Source: Candidatus Micrarchaeota archaeon (GTDB lineage Archaea; Micrarchaeota; Micrarchaeia; Micrarchaeales; CABMGC01). Taken from it: DNA of 64,000 nt. The stretch is from positions 1,077-65,076 of the forward strand of contig JAKAVK010000022.1 of NCBI GenBank assembly GCA_021817325.1. The letters run 5' to 3'. Both the position numbers and the translations under genes were made by a program. The notes beneath the pieces were generated by a model that saw nothing but the letters and a program-made list of their open reading frames with translations, was not told where the DNA came from and ran no database searches. This document shows positions 7,187 to 48,270 of the stretch, piece after piece. Position 1 is the first letter of the stretch. Every line of letters starts with the position of its first letter.

Positions 7187-8361
7187 GATAATCTGTTCTT
7201 GTAGTCTTCGTATCCGAATCTCCTTACTATCCTTACCTTCCCGGTATCTGGATTATATCTTGCTATCGAAGGATGCCTCACTCCGTTGAACGTAGTGGTC
7301 TTCACCATCGAATAATGAGCCATGTCCAGAAAGACCAGCCTCTCCCCGACCTTCAGCCTTCTTTGGAATGAGTAATCCCCTATCACATCCCCAGCCAGGC
7401 AGGTGAGCCCGCCGAGGCGGTATGTGTATCTCCGCTCCCCTGGCTTTCCAGCGCCTATTATCTGCGGCCTGTAAGGGCCGGCCAGTACATCTGGCATATG
7501 CGCTTCTGCAGAAGTGTCGAGTATTGCTATGTCGACCCCGTTGTGCACTATGTCAAGAACTGTTGAGACAAGGATCCCGGCGTTAAGTGCAACCGCTTCA
7601 CCTGGTTCAAGGTAGACCTGCACGCCGTATTTCCTCTTGAAGTTGTTTATTGTCCTTATCAGAAGCTCCCTGTCGTAGTCCGATCTAGTGATGTGGTGCC
7701 CTCCTCCGAAGTTGACCCATTTCATCCTTGATATGTACTTACCGTACCGTTTCTCGAACGAATCCAGTACGTGCACCAGCGCGTCTGCATTCTGCTCGCA
7801 TAGGGCATGGAAGTGCAGGCCGTCTATCATTCTTATCACCCGCTCGGAGAGGTCCGCATATGGTGCGCCGAGCCTGGATCCGGGCAAGGTTGGATTGTAT
7901 AGTGCGTTTTTTACATTTGAATGGCCGGGATTCACCCGCAGTCCGAGTTCGATCTTCTTACCGCTTCTTGCCACCGCATCTCCGTATCTTTCCAGCTGCG
8001 CGGCGGAGTTGAAGATTATCTTGTCAGAGTACCTTATAGCATCCCTGATATCGCTGACGGAGTATGCAGGGGCGTATGTCACGACTTCCTTTTTGAACTC
8101 CTCGCGGCCTAGCCTGGCCTCTATCGGCCCGCTTGCGGATATTCCATCCAGATACTTCCTGATTATTGGAAAGGTGCTGTGCATCGCGAATGCCTTGAGG
8201 GCCAGCAAGATCCTTGCGCCGGTGCGCTTTCTGACCTCTGCAAGCACCTTCGCGTTGCCTTCCAGCAGGCGCTCGTTAACCAAGAAGGCTGGGCTCTCTA
8301 TACGGTCTGTAACGCCCTTTGGGAAATCCTTAAGCTTGTTTACATTGAAGTTCTCTCTCAT
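7183..8361 (-). CDS. nspC: carboxynorspermidine/carboxyspermidine decarboxylase
   Basis: A 392-aa PLP-decarboxylase (alanine racemase fold)-like protein with 'FHALCEQNAD', 'VNFGGGHHITR' and 'LEPGEAVALNAGILV'. It is paired with a saccharopine-dehydrogenase-family gene, as in the alternative (nor)spermidine pathway. Confidence 0.78.
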   Translation of the reverse strand: MRENFNVNKLKDFPKGVTDRIESPAFLVNERLLEGNAKVLAEVRKRTGARILLALKAFAMHSTFPIIRKYLDGISASGPIEARLGREEFKKEVVTYAPAYSVSDIRDAIRYSDKIIFNSAAQLERYGDAVARSGKKIELGLRVNPGHSNVKNALYNPTLPGSRLGAPYADLSERVIRMIDGLHFHALCEQNADALVHVLDSFEKRYGKYISRMKWVNFGGGHHITRSDYDRELLIRTINNFKRKYGVQVYLEPGEAVALNAGILVSTVLDIVHNGVDIAILDTSAEAHMPDVLAGPYRPQIIGAGKPGERRYTYRLGGLTCLAGDVIGDYSFQRRLKVGERLVFLDMAHYSMVKTTTFNGVRHPSIARYNPDTGKVRIVRRFGYEDYKNRLS

Positions 8362-12944: not shown

Positions 12945-13817
12945 CTACAGCAGCAGCGATAGCACCATGAGACCGCCTATCCAGAATGAGAAGTTGCTGA
13001 CCTGAGCTGCGGCATCACGCGGCGTGCGCCTGACTATCTTCCTGTTCAGCTTTATTGCGAGCGGTATCGTTGCGAGCATTATCGGGATCGAGAATAGCGG
13101 GAGCATCCCAATGAATGGCATAGCGATCAGGAAGAGATATATCAGGCCCAGCATAGAGCTGAAGAGCAGTTTCGATCTGGCGGGACCGAGCCTTGATGCT
13201 AGCGTCCTCATGCCGGCTGCAGAGTCCTTCTTTATGTCCCTTATGTTGTTGGCCAGCAGCACAAGCACTATGAGTATGCTGATCGGCATTGCAAAGATCA
13301 CCGGCCTGTATGAGAAGCTGCCGGTCTGGAGCAGATACGCGCCCTCCACCACAAGTATGCCGTAGGTCAGGAAGACCAGGAACTCGCCTGCGCCTATCGC
13401 CTTGGCGCTCTTTTTTGGTGCTGAATATAGGAGCGTTATCATTATGCCGGCTATACCGAGCGGTATTACGATCGGAGTATATCTTATAGACAGATATATG
13501 CCGCACATGATCGCGATCGCGATCAGGGCGAAGAAGACGCGCCACTCCTGGGCGGCGGTCGCCTTTTTGGATACTAATAGATATCCGCGCTCTGCAAGCT
13601 CCCTATCTTCCGGCCTGTCGGCCCCATTCTTGAAGTCGTATATGTCATTGGCCACATTGGAGGCCAGGTTTATCATTGTGACCCCTATGGCGGCCACCGC
13701 AAATGCGGCTGCATCAAAGCTGGGCCACGCTGCAAGCGAGCCCATCGCGACCGCAAATACGTTCAGCGGGGTGCTCCATATTCTTACCATCTGGAAGAAG
13801 TCCTTGGGACTGAGCAC
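12945..13817 (-). CDS. UbiA-family prenyltransferase, MenA-like
   Basis: About 8-9 TM segments. The Asp-rich motif 'NVANDIYDFKNGADRPED' fits N-D-x-x-D-x-x-x-G-x-D. Confidence 0.72.
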   Translation of the reverse strand: MLSPKDFFQMVRIWSTPLNVFAVAMGSLAAWPSFDAAAFAVAAIGVTMINLASNVANDIYDFKNGADRPEDRELAERGYLLVSKKATAAQEWRVFFALIAIAIMCGIYLSIRYTPIVIPLGIAGIMITLLYSAPKKSAKAIGAGEFLVFLTYGILVVEGAYLLQTGSFSYRPVIFAMPISILIVLVLLANNIRDIKKDSAAGMRTLASRLGPARSKLLFSSMLGLIYLFLIAMPFIGMLPLFSIPIMLATIPLAIKLNRKIVRRTPRDAAAQVSNFSFWIGGLMVLSLLL

Positions 13818-13919: not shown

Positions 13920-14765
13920 ATGGGCACTTTGCGCAGGTATGCAAGCCTGATGCAGTTCAAGATAGTGTCTCTTCTCGCCTTCTCTACAATTGCTGGTTTT
14001 GCTATTGCAAGGCCTTACGGCGCGCTGCTCCTGAAGAGCCTTGTGCTGGCCACCATAGGAGTTATACTAGCGTCAGCAGGTGCGGAGGTCATGAACAAGC
14101 TGCTTGAGAGGGATATAGACAGGAAGATGGAGAGGACTAGGAGGAGACCTTCGGTCAGAGGATTGATTGGAGTACGCGCTGGCCTTTTGCTTGGACTGGG
14201 GCTTGTGGGGACAGGGATCGTCCTTGGCTACTTGGTCAATCAGCTGGCAGCGCTGATGATCCTCTCTGGGGCGGTTTTCTACATCCTCGTATATACTCTG
14301 ATACTCAAGAGACGGAGCAGATTTAGCGTTCTGATAGGAGGATTTGCCGGCAGCTTCTGCGTCTGGACCGGGGTCGCTGCAGCTGCAGGTACGATTACCG
14401 TGCCGGGCCTCATCCTCGGCCTGCTTGTACTTCTCTGGATACCTGGACACATATGGTCCCTTGCGCTCAGGCACAGGGATGATTACCGCAGGGCAGGGGT
14501 TCCGATGTTCACTGCGGTAGAAAGCGAACGGACAGGCACGCTGACGATAGCCTTATTCAACGTGCTGATGGCGCTGGTCACCATCTCCCTTGTACCTTTC
14601 CTTGGGATATATTATGCCGCAATAATTGTGATCCCGCTGCTGCTGGTTCTCTACCTGAGTGTAAAGGTGGTCCTTGACAGCTCAAAGGTCTGGTCGGTCT
14701 TCAAGCTCTCCTCCCCCTATCTTGCATTCGTCTTCATTGCAGTAATCGTGGCGACATTTGCTTGA
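13920..14765 (+). CDS. ctaB: protoheme IX farnesyltransferase (heme O synthase)
   Basis: 'AEVMNKLLERDIDRKMERTRRRP' is the CtaB/CyoE form of the UbiA Asp-rich motif. The protein is polytopic. Confidence 0.8.
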   Translation: MGTLRRYASLMQFKIVSLLAFSTIAGFAIARPYGALLLKSLVLATIGVILASAGAEVMNKLLERDIDRKMERTRRRPSVRGLIGVRAGLLLGLGLVGTGIVLGYLVNQLAALMILSGAVFYILVYTLILKRRSRFSVLIGGFAGSFCVWTGVAAAAGTITVPGLILGLLVLLWIPGHIWSLALRHRDDYRRAGVPMFTAVESERTGTLTIALFNVLMALVTISLVPFLGIYYAAIIVIPLLLVLYLSVKVVLDSSKVWSVFKLSSPYLAFVFIAVIVATFA

Positions 14766-16350
14766 TGTTATCTCTGGCAGTCCCTATTGGATTATCCCTG
14801 CCCTTCCTCACGATGAGCATCGCCTTTATTACGACCACAGACATTAGGAGCAGGCCTATGGCAAATATCCAACCCCAGAAGGTCGTTCCAGCGATGCTGC
14901 CGGAGCTGTTGAGCGAGCCGGGGTCGAAGAACGCGTATATGTACCCAGTTATCAGCGCGAACACGGTGACTGCTATTCCTGCGCCTGCCACATTCTTCCT
15001 GATGTTTCTTCTTCCCTCGAAGAAGTCAACAGCGAGAAATGCAAGGGTCACCATAGTTATTGCAAAGAGCGCAAAGTACTGCAGGTTGCCGAAGACCACG
15101 TCAGGCGGGGCTCCGCTTAGCGTCGCTTCGTGGAACTCGATGTAGAAACCCTCTATCGGGGTTGCTATGTATGCGATTATCCACGTGGCGAGGATCGAGA
15201 GCCTGAGAGGATCCCTCCACGCGGGCCTGTCTCTTAGCTTAGTCAGCATTAGAGGAAGAAGCATTATCATGGCTCCGAGGCTCGCTAGGAACATCGTCGC
15301 GTCATCACTGGCCATGCCGTTGGAAGCGGTGTATGAGATCAGCTGCATCGGCCCGCCAGGGTTGCTTGCAAAGATCAGTGGAGGAGTGAATGCTGCGAAT
15401 GCCTCGAATAGGAAGACTATTACCATTATCACAAGCCCAATGATGCTCACCCACATCCCAAACTTTGCAACGCTTCTCCTGATTCCCTTAAGGTGCAGGA
15501 CATTGAACCTCTGCGCGGTCGCTGCTACGGTTCCGAGTATTAGCGCCATGCCTATGACATGAGAATGCGAGCCTATCAGTGCGGTGAAGAATGCGTCGGC
15601 ACCACCAAGCCATGCCTCATACCCGTTCAGGAATGCAGGTGCGGCTATGAAGACGTGGTGTGGGTTTATCCAGAGGGCTATGAAACCCATTATTCCGGCT
15701 ATGAAAGCCACAGCGACCGCAGTGATCACCATGAAGTACGCGGAATCCATCTTCCTGAAATCGCTCCACGTTGGAAGCTGGTTGCGCTTTGGGAACATGC
15801 CCATCACGTTGTCATTTGGCTCGTACCTGCCGGATAGCTTTGCTGGAAGCAGATAGAGCTCTACCAAGAGGGCCCCACCCACATCTGCGAGGAGCAGGAG
15901 TGCTACGAACATTATTATGTCGACGATTGGCGCAGTAGCAGCGTTGAATGCAGGGGAGAGATAGAAGAGCGCTCCGACCGCGCCGATAATAGTCGACAGC
16001 ATCGCCCTGTAAGCTATTGGAAAGTCTATATTAGGCTCGTATTGGTCGATATGGAATGCCATTATTACAAAGTACACCAACAGCGCTGCTATGCCTATCC
16101 CTATAGAGTGGAAGAACATGTCTGAAGGGCCGAATGCGAAGGAGGGCGGAATGCTGCCTCTCGCGTTAGGTATCGCACCGAGGAGAAACCAGAGTATTGA
16201 CATTATTCCGGTAATCAGCAGCGTTATCCAGACGTATGTGCGCATCGAGTGCTTGTAGCCTTTGTGCGGCGCATTATACCTGTTCGGCTTCACATCGCTC
16301 TTGCCGTAAAGGTCGAGATACCTGAATTTGACGTCCCCATGCCCGGCCAT
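14734..16350 (-). CDS. large polytopic membrane protein, unknown function (His-motif rich)
   Basis: A 538-aa track ORF with at least 12 hydrophobic segments. Intramembrane His motifs are 'FFHSIG', 'AFHIDQ', 'WINPHHVF', 'GSHSHVIG' and 'EFHEAT'. Its 3' end overlaps ctaB convergently by 32 nt. Confidence 0.6.
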   Translation of the reverse strand: MAGHGDVKFRYLDLYGKSDVKPNRYNAPHKGYKHSMRTYVWITLLITGIMSILWFLLGAIPNARGSIPPSFAFGPSDMFFHSIGIGIAALLVYFVIMAFHIDQYEPNIDFPIAYRAMLSTIIGAVGALFYLSPAFNAATAPIVDIIMFVALLLLADVGGALLVELYLLPAKLSGRYEPNDNVMGMFPKRNQLPTWSDFRKMDSAYFMVITAVAVAFIAGIMGFIALWINPHHVFIAAPAFLNGYEAWLGGADAFFTALIGSHSHVIGMALILGTVAATAQRFNVLHLKGIRRSVAKFGMWVSIIGLVIMVIVFLFEAFAAFTPPLIFASNPGGPMQLISYTASNGMASDDATMFLASLGAMIMLLPLMLTKLRDRPAWRDPLRLSILATWIIAYIATPIEGFYIEFHEATLSGAPPDVVFGNLQYFALFAITMVTLAFLAVDFFEGRRNIRKNVAGAGIAVTVFALITGYIYAFFDPGSLNSSGSIAGTTFWGWIFAIGLLLMSVVVIKAMLIVRKGRDNPIGTARDNIKQMSPRLLQ

Positions 16351-16462: not shown

Positions 16463-16807
16463 GTGCGGATGATGCCCATGGACAACAAAAATGTGGATGA
16501 AGTGACGTTCGAGGAAGCGCTTGGCATGGCAAGCGGGAGGCAGGCGAAGCTGGTATGGATAGGCAGGGAACCTGTCGAATATATAAGAGGGCTCCTGGAC
16601 CTTAAAGAGGAGATGATGACAGGCATTGATCCGCATGCGCTGATGGCGATGGAGAAGGAGGAAGCGGAAAGGCTGAAGGGGAGCGTCTTTGTCTGCTACC
16701 ATGGGAACAGCTCCAGGGCAGCTGCAAAGATACTGAAGGACAAGTTTGGCGTGGAGTCATACAGTATGAAAGGAGGAGTCACTGCGATTGTTGGGGAGAT
16801 CTTTTAG
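16463..16807 (+). CDS. rhodanese-like domain protein (paralog B)
   Basis: 'LVWIGREPVEYIRGLL...SVFVCYHGNSSRAAAKILKDKFGVESYSMKGGV'. GTG at 16463; ATG at 16469 is an alternative start. Confidence 0.6.
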   Translation: MRMMPMDNKNVDEVTFEEALGMASGRQAKLVWIGREPVEYIRGLLDLKEEMMTGIDPHALMAMEKEEAERLKGSVFVCYHGNSSRAAAKILKDKFGVESYSMKGGVTAIVGEIF

Positions 16808-16880: not shown

Positions 16881-17795
16881 ATGCGCAGGGCTAAGGTTTA
16901 CATCGGAGTAGATATCGGAAAGACGAAGATCGCAGCTGGGCTCGTAAGGGATGGGGCTGTTATGCAGAAGAGCACAATAAAGACTGCTTATAGAGAGGGA
17001 TTTGACAAGGTATATGAGCAGACCACAAATACCGTCTCGAAGCTGGTTGAACGCGCGGGCAGGTATGGAGAGCTCTCCGGCATAGGGATAGCTATGTTCG
17101 GCATCGTTGATTCTGCAAGAGGCTTGTTGGTTGCAAGCAGCCTGACCACAGAAAGGCGTAATATTAAACTACAGGCCATGTTCGAGGAGAGGTTTGGCAA
17201 AACCGTAATCTTAAGCAATGATGTATCTGCAGAGGCGATAGGAGAGCACTTTTACGGAGCCGGAAAGGGTGTTGACAACTCCGTCTTTGTAGCAATCGGG
17301 ACCGGGATGGGGACCGGCATAGTTATAAATAACAGGCCGTTTCACGGCTCGCACATGCTTGCAGGACAAACAGGATGGGCAGGCTTCCTAGACACAAGCC
17401 GCACATGGGAGGATTATACATCAGGCAGCGGCATAGCCAGACGGGCAGCAAAGCTTATCGGCACCGGCGTGTCTGCGCAGAAGGTATTCGAATACGAGGC
17501 GCGGGGGGATCCTAGGGCAGCCGCCATAGTTGATGATGCTGTCCGTCATGCGGCCACGCACTTGGTCATGCTGCAGCGTACGCTGGACCCGGAAGTCATC
17601 GTCCTGGGCGGCGGAGTCATATCAAGACAGCATGCATACTTTGAGCGCATAGTGAACGAGGCTTCAGGGCTTAACGGCCTTTATAGGGCCGTCGCCGCAG
17701 ACACGATCAGGATAAAGAGAGCGGAGCTGGGGGAGAAGGCAGGGCTCGTTGGAGCAACGAAGTATGTGGAATTGTCCCTTGTAGGTAATATTTAA
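16881..17795 (+). CDS. ROK-family sugar kinase (glucokinase-like)
   Basis: It has an N-terminal 'YIGVDIGKTKIAAGLV' (actin-fold ATPase phosphate-1) and the ROK signature region 'VAIGTGMGTGIVINNRPFHGSHMLAGQTGW'. Confidence 0.75.
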   Translation: MRRAKVYIGVDIGKTKIAAGLVRDGAVMQKSTIKTAYREGFDKVYEQTTNTVSKLVERAGRYGELSGIGIAMFGIVDSARGLLVASSLTTERRNIKLQAMFEERFGKTVILSNDVSAEAIGEHFYGAGKGVDNSVFVAIGTGMGTGIVINNRPFHGSHMLAGQTGWAGFLDTSRTWEDYTSGSGIARRAAKLIGTGVSAQKVFEYEARGDPRAAAIVDDAVRHAATHLVMLQRTLDPEVIVLGGGVISRQHAYFERIVNEASGLNGLYRAVAADTIRIKRAELGEKAGLVGATKYVELSLVGNI

Positions 17796-18014
17796 ATACC
17801 AGTATTGAGTTAAGATTCTTGTTAACTGGCGTGATTATGAATAGCAGGCGATCTCTGATCCAGGTACCGCACGTCATAGTTAGCATGCTTATTTTGCAGA
17901 TGTTGTGGTTTATACAGTATGTAGGTATAGTACCTGCATAATGACGCACACATAAAAGCTCTTTTTGTTGGTCGTTATGCAAATACAAAACCTTAATGGT
18001 CGGTGCGTTTTGAC

Positions 18015-19892
18015 ATGGGTAGTAGCGTAGCTTATAGACGAAGCAGATCGGTTGATGGACAGATCCCCCATGGGGCGACAGAATCGATAGTACTGGGTCA
18101 GCGTACAATGGTCTTCGAATTGGAGGAAGTCAGGCGGCAGCTTGCTGGATTCAAGCCAGAGCCTGCCGAAGAGTTCGTGGGCCTGGTTAATAGCATATTC
18201 ATGGGGACTATTCACACGAGGTGGAGAGCAGACACTGAGAACATACTAAACGGCTTCGATAGGGAGCTTAGCAGCAAACTGGAAAGGAAGGAGTATGAAG
18301 AGGTGCATGGAGAGCTGCGCAGACTTGTAGGCAGTCTGGACACGCATAGGGATAGGATAACGAGGTCCAACAACGGATCCGGGTCCAAAGTCAGCGACCC
18401 CCTTTACGACGTGACATTTGATAAGATGGTCAGGGCGCTGCCATACCTACGGCGAAAGGTGATTGAGGTAGGGGAGAAGCACAGCTGCCCAGACGCGGCT
18501 GAAAGCACATCAAGGAAACTTGAAGAGTTAGGAGACACTCTATTACAGATGAAAGGCGACGGTGCACGCAAACTTGCTGCTGTGGTACTTGGCAATTGGT
18601 TCAGCGGATCGAGAAGGAGCCATATCAATGGCGGCACTGATGAATACGTTGCGCAATATTTCATGAATCACCACGACAATCCAGTCGCCACGATGTTCAT
18701 CGCGGTAACCAAACTAGGGCCGGAAGCCAGCCCCAGAAATGGCCCGGATATTTCAGAGCTTATGCTCTACGAGAGACTGGCTGCAGCAGGCTTCAAGAAA
18801 GTTGTGCTGCTTGATGAGTTTCCTACAGTCCAGGGCAATGTGAATCTCTTCGACAACAACAGATACGTTGATGAACTTAGGCAGATGATGAAAGGACGCA
18901 TTGAGGTAGAAGTGGTCCGATTTCCAGAGATTAATACCGAGAAGTTCGGTGGTGTCAGTAAGGCGGTTGACGGATATGTACACGGGCGTACTACCTGGGA
19001 GGAATTCGGCGCGCAGCTTAAGGCCATGTCAGACAGGCCAGGTGCAGCTGCAGAGCAGCTTGCCTCGGATATCTGGTTCAGCTTCCAGAACAATCTCAGG
19101 GCAGTAGTCAGATATGCTGGCAGCTTCGGCGGGAGGGATGCGGTACAGGCTGCGATTTCCGCAACTGCGATGAGCGTCTCGAAGGTCTCCCCAGGACCGG
19201 GTTACCATGACGACAAGCTCTACATCTCGGTTACAAGCAAACACGGAAGACTGCAGATGGGATCAGGTGACGCGCTGCTGCCTAACCACGGCACTGCAGT
19301 TATATATCCGGGCAAGGAAGGCTACGCATTCGCAGTTGCACCACTTTCTGATCTTGTGCAGATGGAGGGGGAGCTGTCAAAGCATTACGATATCATAAGG
19401 CTCGAGGAGAAGGAAGGCGGGAATTATATGGGATATGCACTGGTAGGCAAGGGTAATGAATTTGGCAAGGCCGATCTCAGCCAAGCGCTTCTCAAGTCGA
19501 TACGGCAGAAGGCTAACGCTGGCCAGTCTTGCGTAGGCCTCCTAAATGTACTAATACGTATGGGAGCGCCGAATTCGCTTGTAGAGTCTTACCTTATGAG
19601 AAAGGGCATATACACGGACTCTGTAGAGACGGCAGCTGGCGTTGCTGCAAAGCTTGTCAAAGGCAACATAGACGTAGACGCGGTAGCTATCGGCGTAATT
19701 AAGAGTGATGCAAACCCCATGGCAGTTGCAGACCGCCTACGAGTGATGGCTGAAAGCGACTCTACGATTGATGGCAATCTGGCCGGTTTCCGGAAACTGG
19801 TGGCCAAGATTTATCAAGGGATAGGTACAAATAGTAGCGTGATAATAAACGCTGCCGAGGATGTAGGCACCAAGGAGCTGCTGAGGGATTGA
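18015..19892 (+). CDS. hypothetical protein (625 aa); C-terminal two-thirds paralogous to next ORF, distant DIT1/PvcA-like motifs
   Basis: Track ORF 18003; I prefer ATG 18015, which has GGTG 8 nt upstream. The motifs 'FIAVTKLGPEASPRNGPDISELMLYERL', 'VVLLDEF' and 'YISVTSKHGRLQMGSGDALLPNHGTAVIY' are colinear with the ORF at 19895. The family assignment is from memory only. Confidence 0.5.
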   Translation: MGSSVAYRRSRSVDGQIPHGATESIVLGQRTMVFELEEVRRQLAGFKPEPAEEFVGLVNSIFMGTIHTRWRADTENILNGFDRELSSKLERKEYEEVHGELRRLVGSLDTHRDRITRSNNGSGSKVSDPLYDVTFDKMVRALPYLRRKVIEVGEKHSCPDAAESTSRKLEELGDTLLQMKGDGARKLAAVVLGNWFSGSRRSHINGGTDEYVAQYFMNHHDNPVATMFIAVTKLGPEASPRNGPDISELMLYERLAAAGFKKVVLLDEFPTVQGNVNLFDNNRYVDELRQMMKGRIEVEVVRFPEINTEKFGGVSKAVDGYVHGRTTWEEFGAQLKAMSDRPGAAAEQLASDIWFSFQNNLRAVVRYAGSFGGRDAVQAAISATAMSVSKVSPGPGYHDDKLYISVTSKHGRLQMGSGDALLPNHGTAVIYPGKEGYAFAVAPLSDLVQMEGELSKHYDIIRLEEKEGGNYMGYALVGKGNEFGKADLSQALLKSIRQKANAGQSCVGLLNVLIRMGAPNSLVESYLMRKGIYTDSVETAAGVAAKLVKGNIDVDAVAIGVIKSDANPMAVADRLRVMAESDSTIDGNLAGFRKLVAKIYQGIGTNSSVIINAAEDVGTKELLRD

Positions 19893-19894
19893 GC

Positions 19895-20935
19895 ATGACC
19901 TTAGACAAGAAGTTAGCCATAATACCAAGAGCATCAGTGACATCGTTCAAGGGCAGGGTAAAGCGCAGCATTGCCGATAAGCACATAATGGTAGTGAAGA
20001 AGGCAGTAGGCAAGCGGGAGATACAACGCATACTGGACACTGACGCGCGGCGCATGGTGAAGAGCGGGAATACGCTAAGAAGCTTCCTTGAGACCAACAA
20101 GGTTGCAAGGTACAACGGCTCTGTCGGAGAGTTTGCAGGGATGCTTAAGGGCAGGAAGACGCTGGACTTCCTGATGGTTACCTATATGGGTAAGATGTAC
20201 AACAACCTGAAATCGGATTTCAAGAATCCGGACCTTTCGAATCTTGTCTTTGTTAACCGGGTGAACGCGTTTGCAAGAAAGCTGCACGAGCTCACCGGAA
20301 AGAAGGTGCAGGTGACTATAGCTACTGAGAACGGCCTCTTCGACCGCGACGTATTGAGAATAAAAAGACCCCTGTACAGAAAGCAGCTTGCACAGTTGCA
20401 GAAGCTGATGGATGATTTTGGCATAGAGTACGTAAGACTGAGACCGCTTGACGAGTTCGTAGGCAGCAGATATCAGGGGGCATTTAGGAGGAGCGTATCG
20501 AGATTGAACAAGGATAGGGGCGCGCTGCCTGCTTCTGCCGATTTCAGGCCCGTCTTCGAGACGTTCTACTCGTCTTACCCATCCGATACGTTCAGGGAGG
20601 CGGTCGGCAATTACACCGATAGCAAGACGCAGGAGAGGATAGAGAAGTGGACGCTCGATGCACTGGTCAGATACATGTCATTCCATGCTGCAAGGTCTGA
20701 GACCGACTTTTGGGGAATCAACAAAGGATATATCAGATGCAGTGTGAGCAACAGGAAGGGGGTCCTTGTGTTTGAATATGGGGTGGGTAGAATGTCCCCT
20801 CTCCATGGCATGGCGGTTTATAGGAAGAACGGTGTCTTTACCGAACACTTCTACGATGTAGTAAACGCGTTGCCTGAGGGAAAGCCGCTGACCGTCTGGA
20901 TCTACAAGGACATGCCAGTATGCATAGTTGAATGA
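19895..20935 (+). CDS. hypothetical protein (346 aa), divergent DIT1/PvcA (isonitrile synthase family)-like
   Basis: ATG lies 3 nt after the upstream stop, with GAGGGA 7 nt upstream, suggesting translational coupling. 'NPDLSNLVFVNRVNAFARKLHELTGKKVQVTIATENGLFDRD' and 'YIRCSVSNRKGVLVFEYGVGRMSPLHGMAVY' follow the order PDxGE...SDGxVFxD...RLSIH...TPWH that I recall for Pfam DIT1_PvcA. Key positions are substituted. Confidence 0.5.
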   Translation: MTLDKKLAIIPRASVTSFKGRVKRSIADKHIMVVKKAVGKREIQRILDTDARRMVKSGNTLRSFLETNKVARYNGSVGEFAGMLKGRKTLDFLMVTYMGKMYNNLKSDFKNPDLSNLVFVNRVNAFARKLHELTGKKVQVTIATENGLFDRDVLRIKRPLYRKQLAQLQKLMDDFGIEYVRLRPLDEFVGSRYQGAFRRSVSRLNKDRGALPASADFRPVFETFYSSYPSDTFREAVGNYTDSKTQERIEKWTLDALVRYMSFHAARSETDFWGINKGYIRCSVSNRKGVLVFEYGVGRMSPLHGMAVYRKNGVFTEHFYDVVNALPEGKPLTVWIYKDMPVCIVE

Positions 20936-21173
20936 ACTGGGGTAAAACAGACAGTAACTCTCCACTTGCGGACCTTAATCTCTCATTGTTCATGCCCCCT
21001 TGTAAACTCGTTGATCTTCACGGCTAGGTCGCCATCGTGCATGTGCCTGGTCCCTGGCAGTCTGGTTATATCTTGCACCGCCGCAGGCATGGTATGCCAG
21101 ACGTTGCCCATATAGTAATTATATGTGGCGCTTTTCTTTGATTTTTGGCGTCTCTCGATTTTCGTAGGAAAGG

Positions 21174-21183
21174 TTTAAAATAA
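21174..21183 (+). promoter_or_regulatory. TATA-box candidate inside the 445-bp gap
   Basis: TTTAAAATAA lies 29-38 nt upstream of ATG 21212. Confidence 0.3.
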
Positions 21184-21211
21184 GGGGACTGAATGTTTGA
21201 ATAGTAATGTT

Positions 21212-21313
21212 ATGAACAAGACAGACGCCTTTGTATGCCGAGGTCTTGTGCCTGGCTGGTGCCTTGCTGGAGCGGCAGCATGCTTACCGGCGTGCCCTTA
21301 TGCAATTGCATAA
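21212..21313 (+). CDS. candidate mini-ORF, 33 aa, Cys-rich (MNKTDAFVCRGLVPGWCLAGAAACLPACPYAIA)
   Basis: Below the track cutoff, so I translated it myself. A TATA-like box sits upstream. A T6 run at about 21325-21331 follows it, and AGGTGA lies before the next ORF. Codon usage is somewhat atypical (cga, tta, att), so it may be non-coding leader. Confidence 0.25.
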   Translation: MNKTDAFVCRGLVPGWCLAGAAACLPACPYAIA

Positions 21314-21380
21314 TGGCTTGCTAATCTTTTTTGATGGTCTTTATGCGATACAAAACTATTAGGTTCAACCAGGTGAAGAT

Positions 21381-22637
21381 GTGGCACTAGAGAAGCGCAG
21401 GGGTTTGGCAGAGATAGTGTCTCGGAATGCGGAGAAGGTAGATTATCTGGCTGGAGTAGAGCCCACGTTTCCTGAGGTCAGGGATCTTTTCGGCGGCGTA
21501 CGTATGTTTGCATCGTTTTCGCATCCCGCACCAGATCCCATAGCAAGAGAGCTGTGGGGGCAGATCGTCTTGCTGGAAACGGCGAAGGAAGCAGGCCTGC
21601 TGAGGGATGGTGTACGCGTATCTGGCCACGCAGTATCCTCTAAGTATGCCGAGAATCTGGCATATGATTATGGAGTCCCGGCGCACTGGAGCAACAGGCA
21701 TGATCCTGGATACAACAGGATAGGCATGGGCAACTTTCCAGAGATCCTAAAGCCGTATATACCATTTTTCCTCCAGTCATTAAGGAAGACTTTGGATCTA
21801 GATACACTCGCCACAGTCACTGCAAAGAGCTTTGGCAGGGATGAAGAAGCGGCCCGCAGGGCGCAGGAGGTTGTGAAAATATTTGAGCCGTTGACCCCCA
21901 TAAGCAAGAAGGGCAAGACAGAAGCATTGCCTGGACTGTTAGCTGCAAGGTCGCGCGCATTTGACCTTATGGGAATAGACCATATAGAGGAGAGGGCGGC
22001 GTCGGGGCTCATGAAAACGGTCGCTAAAGCATTGGAACTCCTAGAGAAAAAAGGGCTGCCATTCTATCTGATGCCCTTGACGGATGAGTTCAAGGCTGGC
22101 GGCTACCTGCGTGCGATAGACAGCGAGAAGATACGCAAGAAGGTGGTAATAACAATGGATGGATCACAGCCTGTCTATACATTCGAGGACACTGTCTTTA
22201 AAACACCCGATGGCACTGTCCTTAAAAAGACAACCGAGGTGCGTGGCGACGAGATTTACGGGCTTATTGAATCCGGTGTTGTGATACCTACGGTGCCAAC
22301 CTTTCTGCTTGCAGTGATGGTAGGGCCACAGATACCGCAGATGGGAGGGAGGGACTGGAGGGCCTATGCGCCCCATCTGATAGACACTACGGTACAATGG
22401 ATCAAAGAATCTGGAAAACACGGCTACGACGCGGATTTGGGGAGGGCGTTATTCCTATGCACAGAGGGATACGATCCTTTCAAGGTCATATATAGGGGAA
22501 GGGATGGACAGCATCTCTCTAGGCATTTTAGCATGGGCTATGTGACAATGGGTGGGGATGAGATTAGCAATTCCCTGGTTTCGGATACGACGATAGTTGG
22601 AAAGTACGGCGTTGTTGGGGTATCTTTGAGGCATTGA
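21381..22637 (+). CDS. hypothetical protein (418 aa), possibly third member of the paralog set
   Basis: GTG start with AGGTGA 5 nt upstream. 'YLMPLTDEF' echoes the 'LDEF' motif of the two upstream ORFs. 'ALFLCTEGYDPFKVIYRGRDGQHLSRHFSMGYV' is only loosely similar to their C-terminal motif. Confidence 0.5.
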   Translation: MALEKRRGLAEIVSRNAEKVDYLAGVEPTFPEVRDLFGGVRMFASFSHPAPDPIARELWGQIVLLETAKEAGLLRDGVRVSGHAVSSKYAENLAYDYGVPAHWSNRHDPGYNRIGMGNFPEILKPYIPFFLQSLRKTLDLDTLATVTAKSFGRDEEAARRAQEVVKIFEPLTPISKKGKTEALPGLLAARSRAFDLMGIDHIEERAASGLMKTVAKALELLEKKGLPFYLMPLTDEFKAGGYLRAIDSEKIRKKVVITMDGSQPVYTFEDTVFKTPDGTVLKKTTEVRGDEIYGLIESGVVIPTVPTFLLAVMVGPQIPQMGGRDWRAYAPHLIDTTVQWIKESGKHGYDADLGRALFLCTEGYDPFKVIYRGRDGQHLSRHFSMGYVTMGGDEISNSLVSDTTIVGKYGVVGVSLRH

Positions 22638-22639
22638 GG

Positions 22640-23770
22640 TCACTTTAGCATTACGCCGTCCAGCTTGTCCTTAAGATGCTCCTTCTTCTTCCTGTGTTCC
22701 TCGAGGAATCTATTGATCTTCTTTGCGAGGTCGACTTTGTGGTCTCCTGCAAGCAGAGTGCCGTCACGCTCTCCCTTGAATATCTTCTCCAGCTTATTAT
22801 CGTCAGGCTCGAAGAGGAACTTGTTGTATTGGCAGACGGCGCACTTCTCCGGATCCCCGCCGTACTTCTTCTGCAGTTCTGCTGTCGCCTGCTGGCCTGT
22901 TATCGCCTTGTTCACCTTCTTTGCCACGACCTCAGGCGCATCGTCGAGGTAGATGGTGTTGTCAGGGTCGCTTGAAGACATCTTAGGGTTGCCCTTGAGC
23001 CCAGGCATGAACTTCGCGTGCATTATCGCAGGTTTATAGTATCCCATCTTCTCGATCGCGTTCCTCGCTACCCTGAAGTGCACGTCCTGGTCAACACCAA
23101 GCGGTATTACACAGGGGATGTTCCTGCCGGCCTCGACTGACTTGATGAATGCGGGCACCGCCTGCATGCTCGGATAGAAGAGAGTACCGACGTTCGTCTC
23201 ATTAGTGAAGCCATACGCGTCCTTTGTTATTGAATAGGTTATGTACTTTGCCACCCGTACCGCATGTTTGTAGAGTTTCCCGGCGTACTCGGTGTTGAGG
23301 AAGAGCCTTGTCTTCTTTGTGTCGAAGCCCAGCGCCATTATATTCAGCGCATCGGCATACGCGAGCTCATGCACCTTCTCGAGCGTCAGTTTTGGGTCCC
23401 TCTTTGCAAGGAATTTCTCCTCGTCTGGTATCTCTATGAGGACCTCTGCATCGAACCTCTCCTGAAGCCACTGCGCCATTACAAACGAGGGAAGGTGCGC
23501 TATCGTCATGCCTCCTGAAGGCGCTATTCCGGTGTAGATGTAGAACCTGTTACCCTTCTCGTACTCGTCGAGCAGCCAGTTCATGTCCCTGTTGGCAAAG
23601 AATATTTTCCGCCTTATCATGTAGTGCAGCTCTCCGGCGTCCTTTTTTATGCGCTCCATGAGCCTGTTATCGATAGGCTGTATGCCGAATCGCTCCTCGA
23701 GCCTGCCGTAATCTACCTGCCCCTCAACGTCATATGGTGTTACGCTAAAATCTCCAGGCATCTGAACCAC
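22640..23770 (-). CDS. trpS: tryptophanyl-tRNA synthetase (archaeal/eukaryotic type)
   Basis: 'FYIYTGIAPSGGMTIAHLPSFVMAQWLQERFDAEVLIEIPDEEKFLAK' is colinear with human/archaeal TrpRS '[32 protein letters not shown]...DDEKYL' as I remember it. The KMSKS-equivalent is 'KMSSSDP'. Confidence 0.85.
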   Translation of the reverse strand: MVQMPGDFSVTPYDVEGQVDYGRLEERFGIQPIDNRLMERIKKDAGELHYMIRRKIFFANRDMNWLLDEYEKGNRFYIYTGIAPSGGMTIAHLPSFVMAQWLQERFDAEVLIEIPDEEKFLAKRDPKLTLEKVHELAYADALNIMALGFDTKKTRLFLNTEYAGKLYKHAVRVAKYITYSITKDAYGFTNETNVGTLFYPSMQAVPAFIKSVEAGRNIPCVIPLGVDQDVHFRVARNAIEKMGYYKPAIMHAKFMPGLKGNPKMSSSDPDNTIYLDDAPEVVAKKVNKAITGQQATAELQKKYGGDPEKCAVCQYNKFLFEPDDNKLEKIFKGERDGTLLAGDHKVDLAKKINRFLEEHRKKKEHLKDKLDGVMLK

Positions 23771-24699: not shown

Positions 24700-26358
24700 T
24701 TACCCGGGCGGCAGGTCGTAGTGCGGCTGCTTTACTAGGTTGTAGAATTTAACCCCTAGTTCCTCTTTTACCTTGGCAGAGTACTGGGCTTCCTGACCCC
24801 ACACGGCCCACCTCCTTACGAAGCGTTCCGCGTCTTGCTGTGAGCCGGACGATTGTATCCCGAGCACCTCCCTAGTCATCGATGTGACAATACTATGGAA
24901 CTTGTCGAAATCAACTGTGAAGAGGCTACCATCGAATTTGATTGCACCGGACTCAAGGAAGTAGTTTAGCTTCATCAGATTGCCCACATAGTGTGCGTCC
25001 CTTCCTATCCTTGGTTCAGTCACCGGAAGATTCCTCATAAGCCCGTCCTCCACCCATACCCCGAGCATCTCTTCGGGGGTATATAAGCCCTTATTCACAA
25101 GAAGGGGCATGTTGTACATTGCGAGTAAGTCCGCCTTGAGCTCCTCTATGGTGTTGTGCCATTTACCCAGTGCGGTAGTGACATCCACATTGCCAGTTGT
25201 CCTCTTTGGCCCTAGCGAGTGGCTCACTTCATGGCCCATGGTTGAGTTGGTCATGTTCTGTGTGCTCACGTATCTGTGCAGGCTCGGCTCCACCATCCGC
25301 TCCAGCATGGCGGGATCGGTCCTGAATCCAGCAATCACGTTGCGGAATATGAGAATCTTCCTGCCCTCTTGGTCGAGCACCTTCTCGTCATTTGGGAGGG
25401 TTTGCGCGATGGTTATGTGTGGCCTGTGAGCATTGTAGTCGCCACTCATTGCAACTATGTCCACCATAGAGACCGGCACCACTATATCTGACATCTTCTT
25501 TGCGTGTGACTGCGGCTGCGGCAGGTTTTCCTCGAGTTCCTGCATTAGGCTGGCATAGCCTGACAGGCGGGCCGATTCTTCCGGAAGGTTCACGGTTACC
25601 ATGCCTGCATAAGCTGCCTTCTTGCCCAGCACGCGGTCGTGGTACGTCTCCAGCGGACCGATTATGACGTCGAGGTGCTGTGCCGGGGTCTTGACCCATA
25701 ACACATCGCTCGGATAGTAGAAGTCGCTTGTAAGGGAGTCGCCTCTCGCACGCAGATATCTAGCAAGGCCGCTGTCCTCCATCACCGAGGCGGCGCTCCT
25801 CAGCGAGGCTCTTGTTTGTGAGAGGGTTTCCGCATACTCGTATGCGAACGGCGTTGTGCTTATCGATGTTCCGTTAGTTGATACTATGGTGGTCTCTGAG
25901 AATATTGGTGACGATGGGTCGGTAATTCCTTTAGCCTGCAGAAAACCAGCCATGAAGTCATCAGTTATGACACGGGCTGGGTCCCGATAATTGGTGCCGC
26001 CAGACTTCTCAGGGAGCGGCTCTATGCCCTCGAATAGGGGAACCGTTTCGCTTTTTGGCGTGATGGCAACCGGCCCGTTGAAGATACTGTACGCATCGAG
26101 ATTGGCCATCGCCACCTCGTTGCCTCTCTTAACATCGCTTACAAGCTGCTCGTAGACTTCGTGGCTCTGGGGATGATCCTGCCTGTGGAACAATTCCTCC
26201 ATGCTTCGGAGGGCCTTTGCCAGGTCAGGCAGCGCCCTGAGCTGGTCCTGGGGAACGTTGCCCAGATCCGGCTCGAATGTAAATCTCCTGAGCCTTGCTG
26301 GATTGAGAAACGTCAGATTTAACTCCTCAACAGGTCTGTATTTGAATCTTTCTGCCAT
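24700..26358 (-). CDS. zinc metallopeptidase-like protein (HExxH; DPP III/M49-like second motif)
   Basis: Trimmed from the track start 26466 to ATG 26358, which lies 4 nt after the upstream ORF stop. 'GHEVSHSLGP' is followed about 30 residues later by 'EELKADLLAMY'. Confidence 0.6.
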   Translation of the reverse strand: MAERFKYRPVEELNLTFLNPARLRRFTFEPDLGNVPQDQLRALPDLAKALRSMEELFHRQDHPQSHEVYEQLVSDVKRGNEVAMANLDAYSIFNGPVAITPKSETVPLFEGIEPLPEKSGGTNYRDPARVITDDFMAGFLQAKGITDPSSPIFSETTIVSTNGTSISTTPFAYEYAETLSQTRASLRSAASVMEDSGLARYLRARGDSLTSDFYYPSDVLWVKTPAQHLDVIIGPLETYHDRVLGKKAAYAGMVTVNLPEESARLSGYASLMQELEENLPQPQSHAKKMSDIVVPVSMVDIVAMSGDYNAHRPHITIAQTLPNDEKVLDQEGRKILIFRNVIAGFRTDPAMLERMVEPSLHRYVSTQNMTNSTMGHEVSHSLGPKRTTGNVDVTTALGKWHNTIEELKADLLAMYNMPLLVNKGLYTPEEMLGVWVEDGLMRNLPVTEPRIGRDAHYVGNLMKLNYFLESGAIKFDGSLFTVDFDKFHSIVTSMTREVLGIQSSGSQQDAERFVRRWAVWGQEAQYSAKVKEELGVKFYNLVKQPHYDLPPG

Positions 26359-26362
26359 TCGA

Positions 26363-26683
26363 TCACTCTTTGTTATTGCCAGTGTCTCTTCCGCCAGATA
26401 ATTTGAGACCTTCGAGCCTTTTCCTAACAGTTTGTATCGTATGCCCGAATGCCTTTGCCATCTCATTCGGGGTCATCTGTGCCTCGATGGCTTGCCTGTA
26501 GGCCGCATCTGGTACGCGCCCGGCATAGAGATGTATCATGTTTATCTGACCTTCCGACTCAGTGCGTTCCCGGCGCATCTGTGCTATGACCATTTTGTTG
26601 TGCCGCTGCGCGTAGCGCATGGCTTCCGCAAGGGAGATGGGGGATTGCGTCTCTGCCGTTACAGCATCGCGTCTGACCGCCAT
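26363..26683 (-). CDS. small HTH-domain protein
   Basis: The C-terminal 'MTPNEMAKAFGHTIQTVRKRLEGL' looks like a helix-turn-helix. It lies directly upstream of the peptidase-like gene on the same strand. Confidence 0.5.
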   Translation of the reverse strand: MAVRRDAVTAETQSPISLAEAMRYAQRHNKMVIAQMRRERTESEGQINMIHLYAGRVPDAAYRQAIEAQMTPNEMAKAFGHTIQTVRKRLEGLKLSGGRDTGNNKE

Positions 26684-48173: not shown

Positions 48174-48270
48174 GGGCCCGTAGCTCAGCTTGGATAGAGC
48201 GGCAGACTTCTAATCTGATGGTCACGGGTTCAAAAGTGCTTGAAAAAGCCTGAAAATCCCGTCGGGCCCG
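48174..48270 (+). tRNA. tRNA-Arg (anticodon UCU) with a 22-nt intron in the T loop (59/60)
   Basis: Hand-folded as GGGCCCG/UA/GCUC/AGCUUGGAUA/GAGC/G/GCAGA/CUUCUAA/UCUGA/UGGUC/ACGGG/[UUCAAA + intron + U]/CCCGU/CGGGCCC/G. There is one G27.A43 mismatch. No CCA is encoded. Confidence 0.8.
48235..48256 (+). other. tRNA-Arg intron (BHB-bounded)
   Basis: The 4-bp helix UUCA (48229-32)/UGAA (48251-54) is flanked by bulges AAA (48233-35) and AAU (48255-57). The inner helix is G48236-C48250 plus GCUU (48238-41)/AAGC (48246-49), closed by a GAAA tetraloop. Confidence 0.7.

Follow-up and report, generated by a model that had tools for sequence, protein, structure and literature searches.

The locus described here lies in a stretch of 64,000 nucleotides (nt) of contig JAKAVK010000022.1 from a Candidatus Micrarchaeota archaeon; the whole stretch is called the window below, and coordinates given without a locus label are window positions. 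Three large open reading frames (ORFs) follow each other on its plus strand: ORF1 (18015-19892, 625 amino acids, stop TGA at 19890-19892), ORF2 (19895-20935, 346 amino acids, ATG at 19895) and ORF3 (21381-22637, 418 amino acids, GTG start). A preliminary description of this DNA had taken all three for possible paralogues, with divergent motifs of the DIT1/PvcA family of isonitrile and N-formyl-amino-acid synthases, forming an orphan cluster without known partner enzymes. The coordinates and lengths it gave were confirmed, and so was the tight spacing of the first two genes, where only the dinucleotide GC separates the ORF1 stop from the ORF2 ATG and a Shine-Dalgarno-like GAGGGA (19883-19888) lies 7 nt upstream. 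The 445-bp gap between ORF2 and ORF3 was likewise found, and 2 nt separate the end of ORF3 from the convergent trpS (22640-23770, minus strand), an archaeal-type tryptophan-tRNA ligase gene (NCBIfam, 226 bits against a cut-off of 176.75). On the other side, a ROK-family sugar kinase is encoded at 16881-17795 on the plus strand (Pfam ROK, E 2.7e-50; ROK glucokinase subfamily in NCBIfam). The window is archaeal, since split RNA polymerase B'/B'' and A'/A'' subunits are encoded there, and the G+C content is even over the region.

Relationship of ORF2 and ORF1 to DIT1/PvcA proteins

According to the profile comparisons ORF2 is a true, very divergent member of the DIT1/PvcA superfamily, as the preliminary description had proposed. 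Direct comparison with Pfam PF05141 gave 19.7 bits (E 6.7e-4) over residues 91-200 only, under the gathering score of 26.4 bits, and 7 of the 23 ORF2-family members matched PF05141 at E<=0.01. A word-indexed search found few close homologues of ORF2, and an exhaustive search of 1.84 billion representatives with the ORF2-family profile found 57 relatives. Among the distant relatives found with this profile, 28 of 31 match PF05141 (best E 9.7e-27), and aligning the ORF2 family with these PF05141-type relatives in hhalign gave a probability of 99.95% (E 4.6e-38) over 336 columns, which is approximately the whole length. A hidden Markov model (HMM) built from the PF05141-type relatives detects ORF2 at E 5.9e-33, and the same HMM detects the sequences of the crystal structures of PIsnA (9DH4, 9DHM) at about 1e-30 and of PvcA (3E59) at 4e-27. 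A search of PDB sequences with ORF2 as a single sequence returned noise or no match, and identity between ORF2 and the canonical isonitrile synthases is approximately 10-13%. Scanning of genome contigs with a profile of alignment A1 found one Micrarchaeota contig only (L006; the labels L001-L019 denote loci with relatives in other genomes and contigs), from the same organism as L001, and scanning of metagenome contigs with a subset of the ORF2 family found no match.

For a structural comparison, AlphaFold2 (AF2) models were made from alignments of three sequences, and the ORF2 model was poor, with a predicted local distance difference test (pLDDT) value of 46. When it was compared with the PDB in Foldseek, the best eight matches were all 3E59, 9DH4 or 9DHM (E 5.6e-6 to 3.4e-5, probability 1.00), to be read with the pLDDT of 46 and a template modelling score of only about 0.35, and the ninth-ranked match was far weaker (E 0.025). 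The canonical motifs can be followed through ORF2 in order: FPxK corresponds to YxGK, PD to PD, SDG to TEN, RLSIHP to R.SVS.K and TPWHG to SPLHG, the changes to TEN and SPLH being those already named in the preliminary description. Retained in ORF2 are the lysine K100, the aspartate D113, the acidic E145 (invariant in the family) and the HG pair (H304-G305).

For ORF1, direct scans against Pfam and NCBIfam gave noise only, searches of PDB sequences with the ORF1 family gave noise or nothing, and the first search with ORF1 returned ORF1 alone. Homologues were found among unannotated genes of 380-614 amino acids directly upstream of ORF2 homologues, for example in L008, where the upstream gene matches ORF1 with E 7e-61 over residues 27-516. 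The genes of 380-405 amino acids in this position had been considered as ORF3 homologues, which was rejected as they turned out to be homologues of ORF1. In hhalign the ORF1-family profile (A7, five members) matched the PF05141-type proteins with a probability of 97.1% (E 5.3e-11, 226 columns) and the ORF2 family with 92% (E 6.5e-7, 187 columns, colinear). Pairwise BLASTP among ORF1, ORF2 and ORF3 found nothing significant, and thus the likeness of ORF1 and ORF2 is invisible at the level of single sequences and needs profiles to be seen.

The profile alignment places GPDISELMLYERL of ORF1 opposite NPDLSNLVFVNRV of ORF2, and YISVTSKHGRLQMG..LPNHGTAVIY opposite YIRCSVSNRKGVLVFEY..SPLHGMAVY; with another cut the latter block reads YISVTSKHGRL..LPNHG in ORF1 and YIRCSVSNRKGVL..SPLHG in ORF2. 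Two of the three motif pairs from which the preliminary description had argued for colinearity are found in this alignment. The third, VVLLDEF with LRPLDEF, had been mis-paired, as VVLLDE of ORF1 stands opposite VTIATEN, the SDG-motif equivalent of ORF2. ORF1 retains PD, DE, T.K and HG. Its DIT1/PvcA-like core spans approximately residues 190-480, with extensions of unknown fold on the N- and C-terminal sides, and as judged from the profiles this core is a paralogue of ORF2 that has diverged still further from DIT1/PvcA. We therefore file ORF1 and ORF2 as divergent members of the superfamily and not as proven isonitrile synthases.

Recurrence of the gene pair and its neighbours

The cluster is not an orphan, and on this point the preliminary description did not hold: the pair recurs, and it does so with partner genes. 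At least six archaeal lineages have an ORF1-like gene immediately before an ORF2-like one; they are represented by the window, L001, L002/3, L008-10, L012/13 and L017. The order is ROK kinase and pair in L008-10, as in the window; pair, ROK kinase and arginase in L012/13 (the ROK adjacency being cited for L012); and pair followed 3 nt downstream by a ROK kinase in L017, a 727-kb archaeal contig. An AsnC regulator precedes the pair in L001, and in L002/3 a tyrosyl-tRNA synthetase (TyrRS) gene and an AsnC regulator do so. In L011 (1497-5292) one ORF2-type protein carries a HAD phosphatase domain fused at its N-terminus, and it is accompanied by a second ORF2-type paralogue and, 20 nt downstream, by TyrRS. 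An aldo-keto reductase gene lies divergently upstream of the HAD-fused gene there.

Related arrangements were found in bacterial loci. L014 (6811-10230), as well as L015 and L016, carries two tandem PF05141 genes, 31% identical, followed by a bacterial-type tryptophanyl-tRNA synthetase (TrpRS) gene in a bacterial setting with SecG, UvrC, RecA and RNase J; genes for phosphoglucomutase and a cupin-type glucose-6-phosphate isomerase are located nearby. L018 contains an overlapping tandem PF05141 pair, and L019 (168-3522) has a PF05141 gene, a Hexokinase_2-like protein of 442 amino acids and a Cof-type HAD phosphatase on one strand.

Of approximately ten distinct contexts, four have an adjacent Trp- or Tyr-tRNA ligase gene (TrpRS in the window and L014, TyrRS in L002 and L011), five an adjacent sugar kinase gene, and two a HAD phosphatase, either adjacent or as a fusion. 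In L011 and L014 the TrpRS or TyrRS gene follows the pair on the same strand at a distance of 20-95 nt. If two such aminoacyl-tRNA synthetase (aaRS) genes per approximately 1000 genes and four neighbouring slots are assumed, chance adjacency would, as a rough estimate, be below 1% per lineage. Because the gene orders differ (convergent, divergent and co-directional, with Trp or with Tyr), inherited synteny is not sufficient to account for the pattern.

ORF3 and the small cysteine-rich ORF

As far as profile comparison can tell, ORF3 belongs to an orphan family and not to DIT1/PvcA. Its homologues form two clusters only, at 50% identity, and the family has strongly conserved motifs. Neither ORF3 nor its homologues matched anything in Pfam, NCBIfam or the PDB, and a metagenome-contig scan with the ORF3 family gave no match. 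In hhalign the probability against all three PvcA-like profiles was 0.15-1.4%, with 0.15% against the PF05141-type proteins, which places ORF3 outside the superfamily. The AF2 model of ORF3 has a pLDDT of 39, and a fold search with so poor a model is meaningless. Of the three proposed paralogues, the ORF1 core and ORF2 thus stand, and ORF3 does not.

The mini-ORFs noted previously in the gap before ORF3 are present, and one of them is a conserved gene with a promoter of its own. It is an unannotated Cys-rich ORF of 33 codons, MNKTDAFVCRGLVPGWCLAGAAACLPACPYAIA, at 21212-21313 on the plus strand, preceded at 21174-21182 (plus strand) by a canonical archaeal-type TATA box (TTTAAAATA, with AAAGG before it; AAAGGTTTAAAATAAGG). 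Orthologues lie before the ORF3 homologues of L004 (2596-2691) and L005 (334-432), with 31 and 32 codons, so that the small ORF is found 67-70 nt upstream of the ORF3 homologue in all three cases. The distance from TATA box to ATG is 38 nt in the window, 36 in L004 and 34 in L005. All three keep Cys at four positions and end in CxxxCxYA[IV]A, while their codons change synonymously between TGC and TGT and between GCA and GCT. The argument rests on these positions and changes, because Cys count alone is not rare: at least four Cys occurred in 11 of 116 random small ORFs. None of the small Cys-rich peptides is present in a collection of 15 billion proteins. ORF3 and the 33-codon ORF form a separate two-gene unit.

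The end of the small ORF (21298-21313) reads TTATGCAATTGCATAA, which is its own reverse complement, and the minus strand therefore also reads ...YAIA-stop. This minus-strand frame (…HKDHQKRLASHYAIA followed by a stop) owes its apparent conservation in L005 solely to that of the DNA element itself.

Leader element upstream of ORF1 and ORF3

ORF1 and ORF3 carry the same leader element, beginning 53 nt before the start codon in both. The leader of ORF1 begins with a TATA-like box, TTTAAAT (17791-17797, plus strand), and contains an upstream ORF (uORF) of 34 codons at 17837-17941 (plus strand), which ends in GCA-TAA and whose peptide sequence is not conserved. It is followed at 17935-17991 (plus strand) by an inverted repeat of the form TGCATAA(TGAC)...TTTTTG.TGGTC.TTATGCAA.ACAAAAC. 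Before ORF3 (21298-21356, plus strand) the element consists of the palindrome TTATGCAATTGCATAA, formed by the last codons and the stop of the small ORF, a T6 run and a third arm, TTATGC; three arms make alternative pairings possible. The pattern has only these two sites in the 64 kb, against 0.10 expected. It occurs once in each of L004 (2676-2735), L005 (417-470) and L008-10 (in L008 at 8015-8056), in each case before an ORF1 or ORF3 homologue, and L013 carries variant arms (GCATAT/ATATGC).

Six leaders have one architecture, in which a TATA box is followed after 34-46 nt by a uORF of 31-36 codons that ends in GCA-TAA inside the 5' arm. In L008 and L017, too, the ORF1 homologues come after upstream ORFs of 33-36 codons with this ending, and the peptide is conserved in the ORF3-linked uORFs only. 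Read as RNA, the arms form a helix of 11 bp and are 92% paired, and hairpin z-scores range from -1.6 to -3.6, with -3.6 for the leader of ORF1. Double compensatory changes were sought in the inverted repeat and none was seen. Because of the 92% pairing and the lack of such changes, the readings as RNA hairpin and as DNA operator both stand, and the element could equally be either. The ORF1 and ORF3 units are probably co-regulated, as both carry the same unusual leader.

In L001 (4882-5388) and L002 (1666-2172) a divergent gene for an AsnC/Lrp-type regulator precedes the pair; these are lineages with the short form of ORF1. Instead of the TGCATAA element, the intergenic region of both contains another palindrome, TTGAATAATATTCAA.

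Other features of the window

ARAGORN found no tRNA anywhere in the window. Rfam gave a marginal tRNA match at 48174-48232 on the plus strand (32.9 bits, 59 nt, model positions 1-71), which may be an unusual or truncated tRNA. A 538-amino-acid ORF at 14734-16350 (minus strand) has no Pfam match and a translation rich in hydrophobic stretches; it is flanked by a UbiA-family prenyltransferase gene (13920-14765) and a rhodanese-like ORF (16463-16807), and another UbiA-family gene lies at 12945-13817. On the far side of trpS, an ORF of 588 amino acids (24700-26466, minus strand) resembles peptidase family M49 and DUF7897 only weakly, below the thresholds.

Discussion

It seems that ORF1 and ORF2 are the archaeal form of a gene pair from an uncharacterised clade of DIT1/PvcA-like proteins, in which tandem A/B genes are typical. 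Here the upstream A gene is ORF1, which has degenerated further, and the B gene is ORF2, in which conservation is better. This tandem layout together with the greater degeneration of ORF1 suggests that the two proteins work as a hetero-oligomer. The first step would probably resemble that of PvcA and IsnA, the alpha-amino group of Trp or Tyr condensing with a ketose phosphate at its keto group, and the neighbouring ROK-type kinase may supply this sugar phosphate. In two reports on characterised family members, the amino group of Tyr or Trp reacts with ribulose-5-phosphate to give an isonitrile (PMC7345447; PMC7949033), and Dit1 yields N-formyl-tyrosine (PMC7345447). The neighbours would fit well with chemistry of this kind, Trp or Tyr being suggested by the aaRS genes and a sugar phosphate by the kinase and phosphatase. 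The pathway is not continued by a tailoring oxygenase, so that a simple alpha-isocyano or N-formyl amino acid would be its product. Taken as a whole, we give an even chance to the reading in which the locus encodes a divergent A/B pair of the DIT1/PvcA fold with PvcA-like condensation chemistry, beside a separate ORF3 unit and under a shared leader.

Several observations weigh against it. The match of ORF2 to PF05141 stays below the Pfam gathering score, and no member of the ORF1 family matches Pfam directly. ORF2 is without the Glu of PDxxE, its SDG motif is TEN and the His of RLSIH is Ser, and a few members of the ORF2 family have N or Q instead of the His of the HG motif. The AF2 models of ORF2 and ORF3 are poor (pLDDT 46 and 39), which makes active-site geometry unreliable. 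ROK kinases usually make hexose-6-phosphates, not ribulose-5-phosphate. No iron/2-oxoglutarate (Fe/2OG) dioxygenase or cytochrome P450 was found in ORF1-3 and 16 neighbouring ORFs (approximately 7.2-36.8 kb), in agreement with the preliminary description, and none was found in the precomputed Pfam annotation of the related loci. For secondary metabolism, a place amid the housekeeping genes of small genomes, such as the pair has, is unusual, and ORF3 adjoins the pair in this window only, its homologues in L004 and L005 being elsewhere. The inverted repeat of the leader, too, is without compensatory double changes.

As canonical motif residues have been altered, the chemistry may differ. The proteins could have a PvcA-like fold and either stop at or divert from the first step, giving an amino-acid-sugar-phosphate conjugate (a Heyns- or Amadori-type adduct), or they could draw on aminoacyl-AMP or aminoacyl-tRNA from TrpRS or TyrRS, with the HAD phosphatase trimming the product. 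Such a course is consistent with the replaced residues, with the aaRS genes closely following the pair on the same strand in L011 and L014, and with the HAD fusion in L011 and the HAD phosphatase and hexokinase-like kinase adjoining in L019. The housekeeping-like setting in small genomes would suit it as well, and yeast Dit1 shows that products of the family extend beyond isonitriles (PMC7345447). However, family members that use aminoacyl-tRNA or adenylates are not known, the K, D, acidic and HG positions common to true isonitrile synthases are mostly retained, and the adjacency to aaRS genes could merely reflect a common amino acid or regulation. We regard this explanation as rather unlikely.

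The small ORF before ORF3 raises another explanation, in which the locus resembles those of ribosomally synthesised and post-translationally modified peptides (RiPPs): the 33-residue Cys-rich peptide would be the precursor, ORF3 a new maturase, and an isonitrile or formyl group would be provided or attached by the PvcA-like pair, perhaps to give a metal-binding product. A short gene conserved beside a larger one, as a precursor gene is beside that of its modifying enzyme, is what the small ORF and ORF3 present. The small ORF stands directly before all three ORF3 homologues with its fixed CxxxCxYA[IV]A end, the motifs of the orphan ORF3 are strongly conserved, the leader element is common to ORF1 and ORF3, and copper is bound by both isonitriles and Cys-rich peptides. 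Yet no RiPP maturase, recognition, protease or exporter domain was recognisable in ORF3 or its homologues (Pfam, NCBIfam, PDB), and no transporter domain in ORF3; ORF3 is next to the pair in this window alone, and most loci with the pair have neither ORF3 nor a Cys-rich ORF within reach. In addition, uORFs of like length and unrelated sequence precede the ORF1 homologues, which argues for a regulatory uORF rather than a precursor. A RiPP-like locus thus seems improbable to us. The original proposal of three paralogous DIT1/PvcA-like genes in an orphan cluster could point to the adjacent, same-strand position of ORF3, to the leader element it has in common with ORF1 and to short motif echoes such as TEGYDPF against TENGLFD, but with profile probabilities of 0.15-1.4%, no Pfam or PDB match and a pair that is widespread, it is largely refuted for ORF3 and very improbable as a whole.

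Isonitrile and N-formyl-amino-acid synthases are known from the secondary metabolism of bacteria and fungi, and that a conserved pair occurs amid housekeeping genes, in archaea and bacteria with small genomes, points to a physiological and not an antibiotic role. What is found here is a known kind of enzyme with an unreported partner set, and since that set comprises a sugar kinase, a phosphatase and a Trp- or Tyr-tRNA ligase, it gives a directly testable substrate hypothesis. New are also the conserved, unannotated Cys-rich ORF before ORF3 and the specific leader common to ORF1 and ORF3, which is lineage-specific. In our literature search no paper was found on an archaeal isonitrile or N-formyl-amino-acid synthase or on one linked to aaRS genes, none on PvcA-like genes in DPANN or the Candidate Phyla Radiation, and none on the partner set, the Cys-rich micro-ORF or the leader. 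The micro-ORF, never annotated before, is a measure of the small-gene content missed in such genomes, and the shared leader with its uORF and inverted repeat is likewise one for missed regulatory content. More broadly, a PvcA-like A/B pair may be near-core in small-genome archaea, with related pairs in small-genome bacteria, and may be coupled to Trp- or Tyr-tRNA ligases and sugar kinases to make a new aromatic-amino-acid metabolite (an isonitrile, an N-formyl compound or a sugar-phosphate conjugate) that matters for lifestyle; here the pair would form one regulon with ORF3 and a Cys-rich micropeptide under a new archaeal leader of uORF plus hairpin. We offer this wider view tentatively, and consider it doubtful at present.

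Comparison with known systems

The leader invites comparison with bacterial attenuators, in which a uORF and a hairpin are likewise combined. As in these, the uORF stop lies inside a hairpin arm and the element has a T-run, and before ORF3 there are three arms. The host is archaeal, however, the T-run is located in the loop and not after the stem, and the RNA structure is without covariation, so that a DNA operator is equally possible.

For the gene pair, the closest characterised proteins are PvcA, IsnA and PIsnA (PF05141; 3E59, 9DH4, 9DHM). ORF2 belongs to the same superfamily, probably with the same fold, and its motifs are colinear with theirs. A link to amino acids is probably common to both, through the Trp and Tyr substrates of these enzymes and through the Trp- and Tyr-tRNA ligase genes here. 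In contrast to those systems, the present locus consists of an A/B paralogue pair with altered motif residues in an archaeal host, without a PvcB or IsnB partner, and its neighbours in a housekeeping setting are a ROK kinase, HAD phosphatases and aaRS genes. Isonitrile-synthase paralogues encoded side by side are known from the cyanobacterial hapalindole and welwitindolinone clusters (AmbI1/AmbI2 and WelI1/WelI2), which include an IsnB-type dioxygenase and many tailoring enzymes, and in which both IsnA paralogues are canonical PF05141 proteins.

Yeast Dit1 is a member of the same Pfam family that yields an N-formyl amino acid and not an isonitrile (PMC7345447). Its role, in the spore wall, is structural or physiological and not antibiotic. 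Dit1 is a single gene with the P450 Dit2, whereas a gene pair and no P450 is found here.

The closest relatives that Pfam still recognises are the bacterial PF05141 loci, namely the tandem pairs of L014-16 (385 and 384 amino acids, with TrpRS) and L018, and L019. They differ from the archaeal pair in that both paralogues pass Pfam, the A-type protein is without the long N- and C-terminal extensions of ORF1, the host is bacterial, and no ORF3 or Cys-rich ORF was seen. Their layout is nevertheless alike, with tandem paralogues beside a Trp-tRNA ligase gene, or a PF05141 gene beside those of a sugar kinase and a phosphatase.

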